Shown here one piece after another: positions 28,703-32,177 of a DNA stretch of 64,000 bases. Source of the DNA: Magallana gigas. Its lineage: Eukaryota. Below the pieces are notes generated by a model, which was given only the letters and a program-made list of their open reading frames with translations, made no database searches and was not told the origin of the DNA. The translations under genes and the position numbers were made by a program. The stretch spans positions 3,224,001-3,288,000 of the forward strand of contig NC_088853.1 of NCBI RefSeq assembly GCF_963853765.1. Reading direction: 5' to 3'. Position 1 is the first letter of the stretch. Every line of letters begins with the position of its first letter.

Positions 28703-31675
28703 TCACTTTAAATCCTTAACTTTTTTTGCTGTTTTGGATCTGGTATTTGCGGAAACAGGCAGATCCACAAGCGGTGTTCGTGCGCAACTAGTACTAGAGG
28801 TGTCCAAGATTTTTTTTGCTGTTTTGGATCTGGTATTTGCAGAAACAGGCAGATCCACAAGCGGTGTTTGTGCGCAACTAGTACTAGAGGTGTCCAAGAT
28901 TTTAGACTGAGAGGTAGCAATAGGTTGTATTACCGGTAGATCTCTTTGAGCATCAGATTCTTGCTGAGTGGTGGGTGGGGACTTAAATAACACTCGTTTT
29001 GCAGTATGGGTGTTTACCAGCTCAGGTGAACTTGAGGATGGTCTCAGTAGAGGTTTGCTGGAGCAAGTGGTGAATGTGATTTCAGACATGTTGGCCGACC
29101 CAGGCTGCAAAGTACTATCGGATGCAGAACTTGGTGTTGTTGCCTGACTGGGTGGTGTATGCGGAAACATGGGACAGTGTTCTCCCGACCCAGGCTGCAA
29201 AGTACTATCGGATGCAGAACTTGGTGTTGTTGCCTGACTGGGTGGTGTATGCGGAAACATGGGACAGTGTTCTCCCCGTGCTGTAGTGTCCTCTTGCCCA
29301 CCAGACCCTGCATTGTTGTTGGACCTGTTCCAAGCGCAACCACATCTTCTTCTTCTTAAAAGGTATCGTTTAAAACATACGATAATGACTGCAGCGGTGA
29401 CTGATGCGGCCCATGAGAGGAAACCTTTTAGAAAAAAATAATATAAATAATACATTTAGTTTTCAAAAATATGATTCAATTTATTACTGCTATTTAGAAC
29501 TATAGACCTGCTCTAGTTTCTTATAACTGGTTTACACAAGCTCATGTTTACTGATAGATGAACATACATGGTGAGATTCCAATATCATATGAAGATTACA
29601 CAATTTATTTTTTTCCAATACAAATTAAAGCATTATTTTGTTTACTATTTTCAAAAATGGTATCTTGTTCCTATTGAATTCACAATTTGATGCAGAATAA
29701 CACACTGACCGATAACCTCATCATGCTCATAGATGTCTTCCTCATTGGTTGCATAGATGTCTTCCTCATTGGTTGCATAGATGTCTTCCTCATTGGTTGA
29801 TCCTTGTGATCTCCCTGGTAATTTGGGATGTATTTCTAAAATGAGATAAATACTGTTGTAAATCACTATATGATAACAAGCATTAGTGAATTAACTAATA
29901 CAAAATATAATACGTAAAGGTTTTTTTTTTTAAAATTGTAATTATACTTAAAAAATTAATACTGATAAAATACATTTATTTATATTGACCCTTTGTATCA
30001 GATGTATTATGTTTGTTGCCTTCCACATCTACAGATTTTGGTAGCCTATGAAAGCTGAGTATTTCTTCTTAATTTTTCCTAGTGCATAAAATAATATGCA
30101 CCCAAAAAAAAAATCAGACTTCCGTAAGTGTCATTATAACGTCGACTGATTTTATGTACGACTTAACTGTTATGCAAAATCAAGATCTCTCATTGGCTTT
30201 AATGTACGTGCATTGTGGGTACTAATGTTCCGCATGGCAATGACGCTTTGTTTCAAACATGGAGAAGTACCTGACGATAAGTAAGCGTAAACGTTCGTTT
30301 GATCGCCTTGATGACAACAATAATCGTTTACAGTTCTAATTCAACTGATATGAAGAAAATGTTGGGCTAGTAAGTTTAAACTTTGGGCTAGTAACTTTGC
30401 TACTGCCAGTAGCCCCTGGGCTAGTAGCCATTTTTTTTTTGTAATTGCACACCCCTGTATTGGCTTACTTTTCTGTGTGTTTTTGCTTGTCACTTCTTTG
30501 CTTGTCACTTCTGGTTCAGTTGTAATCCTTGATGTCCCAGTTGTACTTGTTGATGTCCTTGTCACTTCTGGTTCAGTTGTAATCCTTGATGTCCCAGTTG
30601 TACTCGTTGATGTCCTTTTGTTTACTTCTAATAAATAATAAGCAGTATTATAAACAAGTCCAGTACAATCTCTTGATTTAGCTATAATGCTTGAAAAAGC
30701 TATATAGCTTTATAAAGCTATTCAAAATAGCTTAATAAAGCTATTTATGTGCAGTTTTTGAAGAATTAACTTGCTACTCATATTTGCACAATTGACCATT
30801 ATAAACTTGACCACAATTAAAGATAGTTTTAACACTGCAGCTTTTAAACACTTATAAGCAAAAAATATATTTCCATTGTTTGGGTTACTGTTTACCACTT
30901 TGTGTGCAATGAGACGTACGCGTGGATAAGTATGATTTCTTCTCATTGTGATAAATTATTACCAATCAATTATCTTGTTTACCATAACTGACCTCCTTTA
31001 TATTTCATTCAAAAAGTAACTATGTGGTCATGAATCAGTTGCCCCTAAACTTTGATAAAACCTGATAAACACTTAACAAATATTTAGAGATAGACATTTC
31101 ACAGAGTTTGATCAACTAATAAACAATTTACCTCCACGTTGTGTTGACTGACCAACATCAATTACATGAAATGGTTCTGAAAAAAAGGGTAGTAATTAGA
31201 ATCTCAACACAACACACCACCACAGTGTTAATCGAGTAATACAGTACTTTTCAAAATGGGTGCATACGTGCCGATTTACAAAATTTGCTCTATAATATGA
31301 ACCAGCACGGAGTAGGTAGTAGTGATTTAGAAAATTTCAATTAACAATAAAATTTCAATTTTCTACGATGCAAAAATAAATTTCCGAAGGTATATTATAC
31401 AGTTAATCTAGTCTGAACTGGTCCCTCGAGGTCACCAGGTAGTTCTGGATAACGAACCCGATGATATTGTTTACACCAAAGGTCCGAGACCAGTAAAGTT
31501 AAACTGATCGTTGATAATAACAAGCTGGGGATATATTACTTTTCTAGGCTTAAACCTTCTGAAAGCATAATGTTCATATTTCTCCGAAATTTTTGGTTCA
31601 ATCTATATTTGTGGGTAACGAACCCGATGATATATTGTGGATCTTAAAATTTCGTTCGTTTTTTAACATAAACAT

Positions 31676-31721
<46 letters not shown>

Positions 31722-32177
31722 GAATAGTAATTAGTATATCTTTGTACAAATATTCATCTTATCATTGATAACAAGCTGGCGAGATATTAATTATATATGC
31801 TTAAAACTTCAGAAAACATTTCTCCGAGATTTTTTTGGCTCAGTCTGTATTTGTGGGTAACGAACCCGATGATATTACGATGTAGATATTTTCCCACAAA
31901 TAAATTATACACAGTCAATAGTTAAAATTTTCAAAATTGTACTGAAAAGTTGCTTACCACAAAGTATGTCCAGAGGTTTGCTTGCGTGAATTCGGACGGC
32001 GCTCGGATCGCCTATTATGGTCACCTTCTGGAGGTGACACGCCGTCACGTAAACGTCTCTCACCTCATCCGATCGAACTTCTATTTCTCTGCAGGGGAGA
32101 TAACATCTCCTTATTGGGACGGAATACGTTAAACATGCCGTTGAAAGGCAGATAAAACCTATGATAGCTTTCGCCAT
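28703..32177 (-). CDS. Spliced type I membrane mucin-like glycoprotein, 408 aa; exons 32177-31958, 30627-30469, 29835-29710, 29424-28703
   Basis: All three introns are GT-AG phase 1; the joined CDS is 1227 nt and open; signal peptide, Cys domain, T/S stalk, TM VIGFLSWAASVTAAVIIVCF followed by KRYLLRRRR; internal repeats of 57, 24, 90 and 90 bp are all in frame. Confidence 0.8.
30658..31053 (-). mobile_element. Truncated copy of the 55814-56491 MITE inside a Maverick intron
   Basis: Aligns in reverse to 56058-56488, keeps one TIR end and has an internal deletion of about 35 bp. Confidence 0.85.
31679..31720. repeat. (CA)n microsatellite
   Basis: Directly visible. Confidence 0.95.

Follow-up and report, generated by a model that had tools for sequence, protein, structure and literature searches.

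Adenoviruses are described as descendants of polintons (PMC11071308). Their E3/49K membrane protein is a glycosylated type I protein with domains on a disordered linker, and it acts against immune cells by damping recognition (PMC13437282). Among the Mavericks (Polintons) of nematodes, intron-containing non-core host genes such as wasp proteases and krma kinases lie near a terminal inverted repeat (TIR), and a membrane fusogen, MFUS-1, combines a signal peptide with a single transmembrane (TM) segment (10.1101/2022.07.12.499685). Adintoviruses, which are animal polintoviruses, encode host-interaction genes (PLA2X, GasderminX, Cupiennin, Oncoid, Bcl2 and IAP), and the main text of their description has no occurrence of 'transmembrane', 'glycoprotein' or 'splic' (PMC8502044). 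Here we describe a Maverick of the oyster Magallana gigas that carries a spliced gene for a predicted type I, mucin-like membrane protein with a four-cysteine (4-Cys) domain, which may serve the element as a surface accessory protein. The gene lies on the minus strand at positions 28703-32177 of a 64,000-nucleotide stretch of contig NC_088853.1 (assembly GCF_963853765.1, positions 3,224,001 to 3,288,000), hereafter the window.

A spliced gene in a recently inserted Maverick

Four exons proposed in the initial annotation join into 1227 nt, encoding 408 amino acids plus a stop, and the three introns are all GT-AG and all phase 1. An independent annotation arrived at the identical gene model: RefSeq XP_065934962.1 (M. 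gigas) is letter-identical to the spliced product (tblastn, 100% over all four exons). The gene had been called hidden from the open reading frame (ORF) track. This is true of the plain ORF list, where the last exon alone has an ORF of at least 100 amino acids, and it goes no further because RefSeq already holds the same protein.

Exon 1 (31958-32177, 220 nt) contains the start codon, the signal peptide and the whole 54-aa 4-Cys domain, and its phase-1 donor directly follows the last Cys. Downstream are a Ser/Thr-rich stalk exon (30469-30627, 159 nt) with 57-nt and 15-nt duplications inside, a juxtamembrane exon (29710-29835, 126 nt) with three units of an acidic 24-nt repeat (two in two other copies), and a last exon (28703-29424, 722 nt) encoding the TM helix, a basic/Cys segment, a Ser/Thr/Pro-rich tail with two 90-nt duplications, and the stop. 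While all four exons stood, a fifth of 45 nt (31176-31132, phase-1/phase-1) had been overlooked. Under an ad hoc score its acceptor ranks first among the 203 AGs in the gene and its donor is in the top 4 of 217. It matches residues 74-88 of the M. gigas models XP_034322666.1 and XP_034334882.1 at 100%, and it is 74% identical in two Crassostrea virginica models that also retain the three downstream exons. The exon could be cassette or constitutive; with it, the window copy would encode 423 amino acids. In the intron below it there is a host repeat resembling a miniature inverted-repeat transposable element (MITE; 30655-31053), which ends 27 nt from the next acceptor and may affect inclusion of the 45-nt exon either way. 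A fuller copy of this repeat is found at about 55808-56497.

The internal duplications keep the frame, as first noted. The repeat period is a multiple of 3 in 5 of 5 exonic repeats versus 10 of 25 non-exonic ones (Fisher p 0.021; from 43 repeat rows, 12 of period below 14 and one overlapping exonic row were dropped). Just upstream of the start codon, a duplicated 67-nt CCAAT-containing element (32190-32354) is a candidate promoter that would be common to the head-to-head gene, and a word of it recurs in the upstream read-through of one relative.

The assignment of the gene to a Maverick is borne out, since it sits within the TIRs and target-site duplication (TSD) of a 21.9-kb element. This Maverick/Polinton (13567-35427; 21,861 bp) has AGTAGT...ACTACT ends, hence the AG...CT termini of Mavericks, a 6-bp TSD (13561-13566 and 35428-35433), a protein-primed DNA polymerase B (PolB) and a retroviral-type integrase. 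The left TIR (13567-13905) pairs with the right TIR (35083-35427), and 335 of 345 columns are identical. The insertion point is in the 5' coding region of a BEL/Pao long terminal repeat (LTR) retrotransposon (7027-36062, minus strand; LTRs at 7027-7522 and 35567-36062; 5-bp TSD). The LTRs of this interrupted element are identical at 492 of 496 bases (99.2%), and the Maverick insertion is therefore recent. The whole region at 6630-37991 is a triple nest, with the Maverick in the BEL/Pao element and the latter in a tandem repeat of about 1160 bp.

Protein architecture

Each part of the protein named in the initial annotation was located. A signal peptide is predicted at the hydrophobic N-terminus from hydropathy and from all relatives, and the 54-aa domain has its cysteines at C25, C29, C47 and C73. 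It is followed by a stalk of 53 aa (49% Ser+Thr), an acidic 8-aa repeat in three units, a TM segment at residues 167-186 (Kyte-Doolittle 2.26), a Lys/Arg- and Cys-rich juxtamembrane part, and a 222-aa tail with two 30-aa duplications. The acidic, Tyr-containing repeat varies in copy number between gene copies and occurs in none of the other lineages. Based on hydropathy, the window protein and 7 relatives share an N-terminal signal, one TM helix and a positive inside, in agreement with the proposed type I topology.

The protein had also been called a mucin-like glycoprotein. Its Ser/Thr-rich extracellular stalk is that of a membrane mucin-like protein, although short and proline-poor compared with a true mucin; the stalks in Saccostrea reach 64-67% Ser+Thr over 121-165 aa. 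Any glycosylation of the window copy would have to be O-linked, because both of its N-glycosylation sequons (201 and 280) fall in the cytoplasmic tail. Several other lineages have sequons inside the domain in the domain alignment.

An oyster family with a variable domain

A phmmer search over 1.84 billion representatives gave 22 matches and a profile search gave 24 (two low-complexity phmmer matches were excluded as uninformative). Named members are all from oysters (Ostreidae), namely M. gigas, C. virginica, Saccostrea cuccullata and S. echinata, and no relative was found outside oysters among these representatives. In M. gigas there are five lineages, with domain identities of 33-83% to the window copy, or less among themselves. 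Across 21 aligned domains (the set also used for the tree and identities, near-identical contig copies omitted), 4 columns are invariant and 8 more are 90% conserved, three of those being Cys. The intron after the last Cys is conserved in position across the family. All 7 other full or near-full relatives keep the architecture of a stalk, one TM segment (hydropathy 2.0-2.8) and basic residues after it. Tail length across the family is 60-220 aa, and a short tail motif is common to three distant lineages. To survey the intron, we compared 172 stored proteins, 86 of which match the profile; 82 carry the anchor motif, one of them being the window's exon. Among these, 25 of 25 named models continue spliced, and all 25 are annotation models. 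One paralogue, 'mucin-2-like', is annotated with ten isoforms. RefSeq isoform richness usually reflects RNA-seq support.

Family members are labelled 'uncharacterized', 'flocculation protein FLO11-like', 'mucin-2-like' or, in UniProt, 'Zonadhesin'. The FLO11, mucin and zonadhesin labels reflect low complexity only, and no Flo11, VWD, MAM or SEA domain was found in Pfam. For neither the domain nor the full proteins did any family in Pfam, NCBIfam or PHROGs pass the cut-off, and a profile search of 400-2000-aa proteins returned the M. gigas model only. Phage records gave only 2 weak matches (E 0.3), and none of 123 pattern matches in prokaryotic genomes was confirmed. Neither this oyster family nor a comparable protein of mollusc Mavericks is described in the literature covered, which leaves out most subscription papers. 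Judging from the sequence comparison, the 4-Cys domain defines a previously undescribed oyster family with one conserved intron and one architecture.

Could the locus be decaying or never-expressed sequence that merely resembles a gene? The surveyed contig-derived relatives include no direct transcript, a MITE-like repeat sits in an intron, and the polymerase of the element is disrupted. However, C. virginica and Saccostrea retain the exon boundaries and the frame, the repeats keep the frame, and across 21 sequences the Cys and core residues show conservation. For the family this reading is largely refuted, and we regard it as very improbable.

The domain varies far more than the capsid of the element. 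Domain identity between lineages falls to 30-61%, while the window capsid shares 89.5-99.5% identity with the 11 full-length named oyster capsids of its cluster (three further listed members were omitted as partial or unnamed). A variable domain in a conserved architecture is the pattern of a host-interface protein. Between elements of Magallana, Saccostrea and Ostrea, the major capsids share 90-92% identity, and this likeness across oyster genera hints at horizontal movement.

One M. gigas lineage groups with Saccostrea members (80-84% identity, support 94/92), and thus the lineages of the family predate or cross species borders. Such a grouping is expected of old host paralogues. It favours captured host cargo, in which this Maverick lineage would have acquired one member of a multigene family of small, mucin-like oyster receptors, and this member would ride along without a role for the element, or benefit the host only. 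The host-like exon structure with all introns in phase 1, the restriction of the family to oysters and the isoform-rich 'mucin-2-like' paralogue point the same way, and nematode Mavericks offer a precedent for intron-containing host cargo near a TIR (10.1101/2022.07.12.499685). Against this, it would be unusual for an old host receptor family to have no relative outside oysters in the representatives searched, and other genes of this Maverick likewise bear introns. A further, weak point against host cargo comes from upstream sequence. The window has 4 copies of an 8-mer of cyclic-AMP response element (CRE) type, all 4 of them in the Maverick (0.71 expected), and words in the upstream read-through of four relatives fit this motif, with codons unseen. 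Taken together, we consider host cargo rather unlikely, although a serious competitor.

Linkage to Mavericks is direct for the window copy. At 4 and 6 differing residues, two further M. gigas models are close to the window protein. The accession number of XP_034322666.1 is two away from that of the capsid XP_034322664.1, which is 99.5% identical to the window capsid, and this suggests the same Maverick arrangement in another assembly. The other model, XP_034334882.1, differs by 6 residues and lies about 12,000 accession numbers away, suggesting a second locus.

Predicted fold of the 4-Cys domain

An AlphaFold2 model of the domain built with 21 sequences (pLDDT 75) shows a short strand roughly every ten residues, four in all, and is compatible with a small beta-solenoid of two coils. 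The Foldseek comparison proposed in the initial annotation returned nothing at E 0.001, either against the PDB with a single-sequence model (0 of 69 matches) or against BFVD with the 21-sequence model (0 of 36), and a PDB sequence search with a 13-sequence profile gave no match at E 10; this absence of structural matches does not show a new fold. Wide structure searches (VIA, 48,161 chains) gave best Z values of 2.8 and 2.2, the first for a beta-helical fibre-like structure (rmsd 2.6, 50 aligned). The C-CAP/TBCC beta-helix reached an Atlas score of 0.84, a lead only, with C-CAP chains at Z 2.1-2.8 only and no Pfam match to the profiles PF07986 and PF08603. A further Atlas search yielded no usable unnamed cluster.

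The loose likeness of this short-strand model to beta-helical fibres, together with the type I topology and the fusogen encoded by nematode Mavericks (10.1101/2022.07.12.499685), could speak for a virion-associated or egress protein, located on vesicles or a quasi-envelope around capsids, where it would serve as an attachment spike. The initial annotation had listed an egress or envelope protein among its suggestions, and this finds no support in the size of the protein, which has an ectodomain of some 150 aa and a folded part of 54 aa, versus the 866-aa, gB-fold MFUS-1. Moreover, the gene stands apart from the capsid module on the opposite strand, a long disordered tail and weak conservation are not what structural proteins show, and among the other genes of the element none was recognised as serving membrane fusion. 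We therefore regard a virion or egress role as quite unlikely.

Like MFUS-1, the oyster protein is a Maverick-encoded protein with a signal peptide and a single TM segment; MFUS-1 differs in being gB-like and 85% conserved among C. briggsae elements (10.1101/2023.08.22.554363). A class III fusogen of the MFUS-1/gB kind, with an ectodomain of about 700 aa, is ruled out by the ectodomain and folded-part sizes given above.

Fractalkine, the CX3C chemokine, has a four-Cys domain with C-x3-C on a mucin stalk, followed by a TM segment and a tail. The oyster protein shares the four-Cys domain with C-x3-C, the stalk, the TM segment and the tail. A CX3C chemokine was rejected, as several relatives have C-x4-C spacing, no chemokine family matched in Pfam, and the model has no C-terminal helix.

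Other genes of the Maverick

Two proteins encoded in the left arm of the Maverick are candidates for acting on host defences. The first (15029-15262, plus strand; 77 aa) is a GADD34/ICP34.5/DP71L-type protein that binds protein phosphatase 1 (PP1), with a PF10488 match at E 5.3e-08 (33.3 bits, cut-off 26.1). DP71L-type proteins of African swine fever virus recruit PP1 and sustain translation in infected cells (PMC5346070); polintons go unmentioned in the literature listed on GADD34/ICP34.5/DP71L. The second is a CARD-PC4-PC4 protein (15472-16425, plus strand; PF00619 E 2e-13, PF02229 E 9e-14), possibly a decoy for CARD-based antiviral or death signalling. Its exact sequence is present on 228 contigs.

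Introns are not confined to the 4-Cys gene. Head-to-head with it on the plus strand is a second candidate spliced gene (33364-34585) of five exons, whose four introns are all GT-AG and phase 2 and which matches no family above cut-off; splicing thus appears to be a habit of this Maverick. The protein-primed PolB gene (22054-26780, minus strand) is in four ORF pieces, three of which match PF03175, and is disrupted by an in-frame stop (23047-23049) and a frame change near 24990. In its nuclease-like region there is a candidate GT-AG intron near 23650-23820 (minus strand). A mollusc pPolB2 carrying a VSR insertion has been described (10.1101/2023.08.22.554363).

The core genes (16646-21314, plus strand) encode an integrase-chromodomain protein, a probable minor capsid, a basic protein, a major capsid, a protease and a packaging ATPase. 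The integrase is above cut-off (PF00665, E 3e-12), and the double jelly-roll capsid, Ulp1-type protease and packaging ATPase families were matched below curated cut-offs (E 0.003-0.03). The major capsid (18773-20089) clusters with oyster 'F54H12.2-like' proteins.

The left arm also has a PC4-domain ORF with a hydrophobic N-terminal stretch (14286-14729, plus strand) and two related small plus-strand ORFs near CRE-type motifs (14007-14210, 67 aa; 14822-15022, 66 aa). Near the right TIR, a 205-bp inverted copy (34770-34974, minus strand) is 92% identical to part of the PC4-domain ORF region, as if the TIRs had formerly been longer. From the 3' end of the 4-Cys gene to the polymerase start, 1.9 kb (26800-28700) is AT-rich and non-coding, with a 107-bp repeat in three units and further duplications. 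Elsewhere in the window we found a PNMA/gypsy-type gag (598-1476, minus strand), a transposase-like ORF set without assignment (41981-46490, minus strand) and a reverse transcriptase of a long interspersed nuclear element (56670-58835, minus strand).

A possible E3-like accessory function

A surface shield or decoy role fits these observations best. We tentatively favour, at somewhat less than even chances, a non-structural, adenovirus-E3-like surface accessory protein of an oyster polintovirus that damps host recognition. When the Maverick is expressed, the spliced protein would enter the secretory pathway via its signal peptide and be anchored in the plasma membrane by the single TM segment with the basic residues inside. 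A small, presumably disulphide-bonded beta domain would be held out on a presumably O-glycosylated stalk, and phase-1 exon cassettes and repeats that keep the frame could adjust the length of this stalk. A host surface molecule, carried most probably by haemocytes or mucus, would be bound by the domain, which together with the stalk would dampen recognition of the cell, while the Ser/Thr-Pro-rich tail might handle trafficking or signalling. In this the protein would work like adenovirus E3 membrane proteins, without homology to them.

This accessory role is favoured by the position of the gene inside an element that TIRs and a TSD delimit and that is younger than the BEL/Pao LTR pair, and by the PF10488 and CARD proteins encoded in the same element. 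The divergence of the domain beside near-constant oyster capsids, and introns that seem normal for the element, are consistent with it. By analogy, type I E3 proteins are used against immune cells by adenoviruses of polinton descent. Several points weigh on the other side. None of 56 contig-derived relatives is a spliced form (51 read into the donor or intron and 5 end before it), and the named relatives are oyster-only, whereas Mavericks are widespread. Because the polymerase of the same copy is disrupted, the intact state of the 4-Cys gene need not reflect selection. The capsid neighbour of XP_034322666.1 may come from this very insertion in a different animal, and with the distant paralogues seen outside their genomic context, most of the family may consist of ordinary oyster genes.

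An integrated copy could instead mask the receptor of related polintoviruses or of oyster herpesvirus, to the benefit of both element and host. The surface topology and the lineage-specific variable domain would suit such a superinfection-exclusion or anti-virus factor, and the isoform-rich paralogue suggests expression from the genome. But no spliced contig of any member was present among those surveyed, and the domain has no likeness to viral structures in BFVD at E 0.001. We consider this explanation improbable, marginally more so than a virion or egress role.

For a membrane glycoprotein made by a non-enveloped virus of the polinton lineage, the adenovirus E3 proteins are a precedent, which the initial annotation overlooked. 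E3/49K (CR1-beta, of the RL11/CR1 family) is described as a highly variable, non-structural type I glycoprotein with small domains on a disordered linker (PMC13437282), much like the oyster protein. In contrast, CR1 domains are Ig-like, whereas the model of the oyster domain consists of four short strands that recur every 10 residues; the E3 tail is short, versus 60-220 aa in the oyster family; and the oyster element is integrating and resides in a mollusc. CR1/RL11 membership was rejected, as 13 domain members and 6 full-length members gave no such Pfam match at E up to 1. The likeness would thus be one of working, not of membership. Compared with the accessory cargo of nematode Mavericks, the oyster gene is likewise an intron-containing, non-core gene near a TIR, but the wasp proteases and krma kinases are intracellular enzymes (10.1101/2022.07.12.499685).

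Implications for oyster Polintons

Whether animal Polintons are real viruses is a long-open question, and no virions of theirs had yet been seen (10.1101/2023.08.22.554363). Only in an element that operates in cells and faces immunity does it make sense to find a surface protein, a PP1 recruiter and a CARD protein. The three genes offer concrete markers with which to look for such a stage in a major aquaculture species. The gene model was already in RefSeq, under low-complexity names. Maverick surveys that ignore introns exist (10.1101/2025.04.19.649669); such genes would escape surveys of this kind, and in host annotation they appear as oyster mucins. Should the gene be host cargo after all, it would exemplify the movement of genes by Mavericks beyond the nematodes.

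A bolder proposal, which we hold possible but doubtful, is that oyster polintoviruses have a family of their own of surface glycoproteins that are alternatively spliced, share a new small beta-solenoid-like domain and have diversified between element lineages. With a GADD34/DP71L-type translation-rescue gene and a CARD decoy, these would form an independently evolved E3-like kit for host manipulation in an integrating, intron-bearing virus, and many oyster 'mucin-like' models would be viral. If the proposal is true, such 'transposons' would go through a live infectious stage and be engaged in an arms race with the immunity of oysters.

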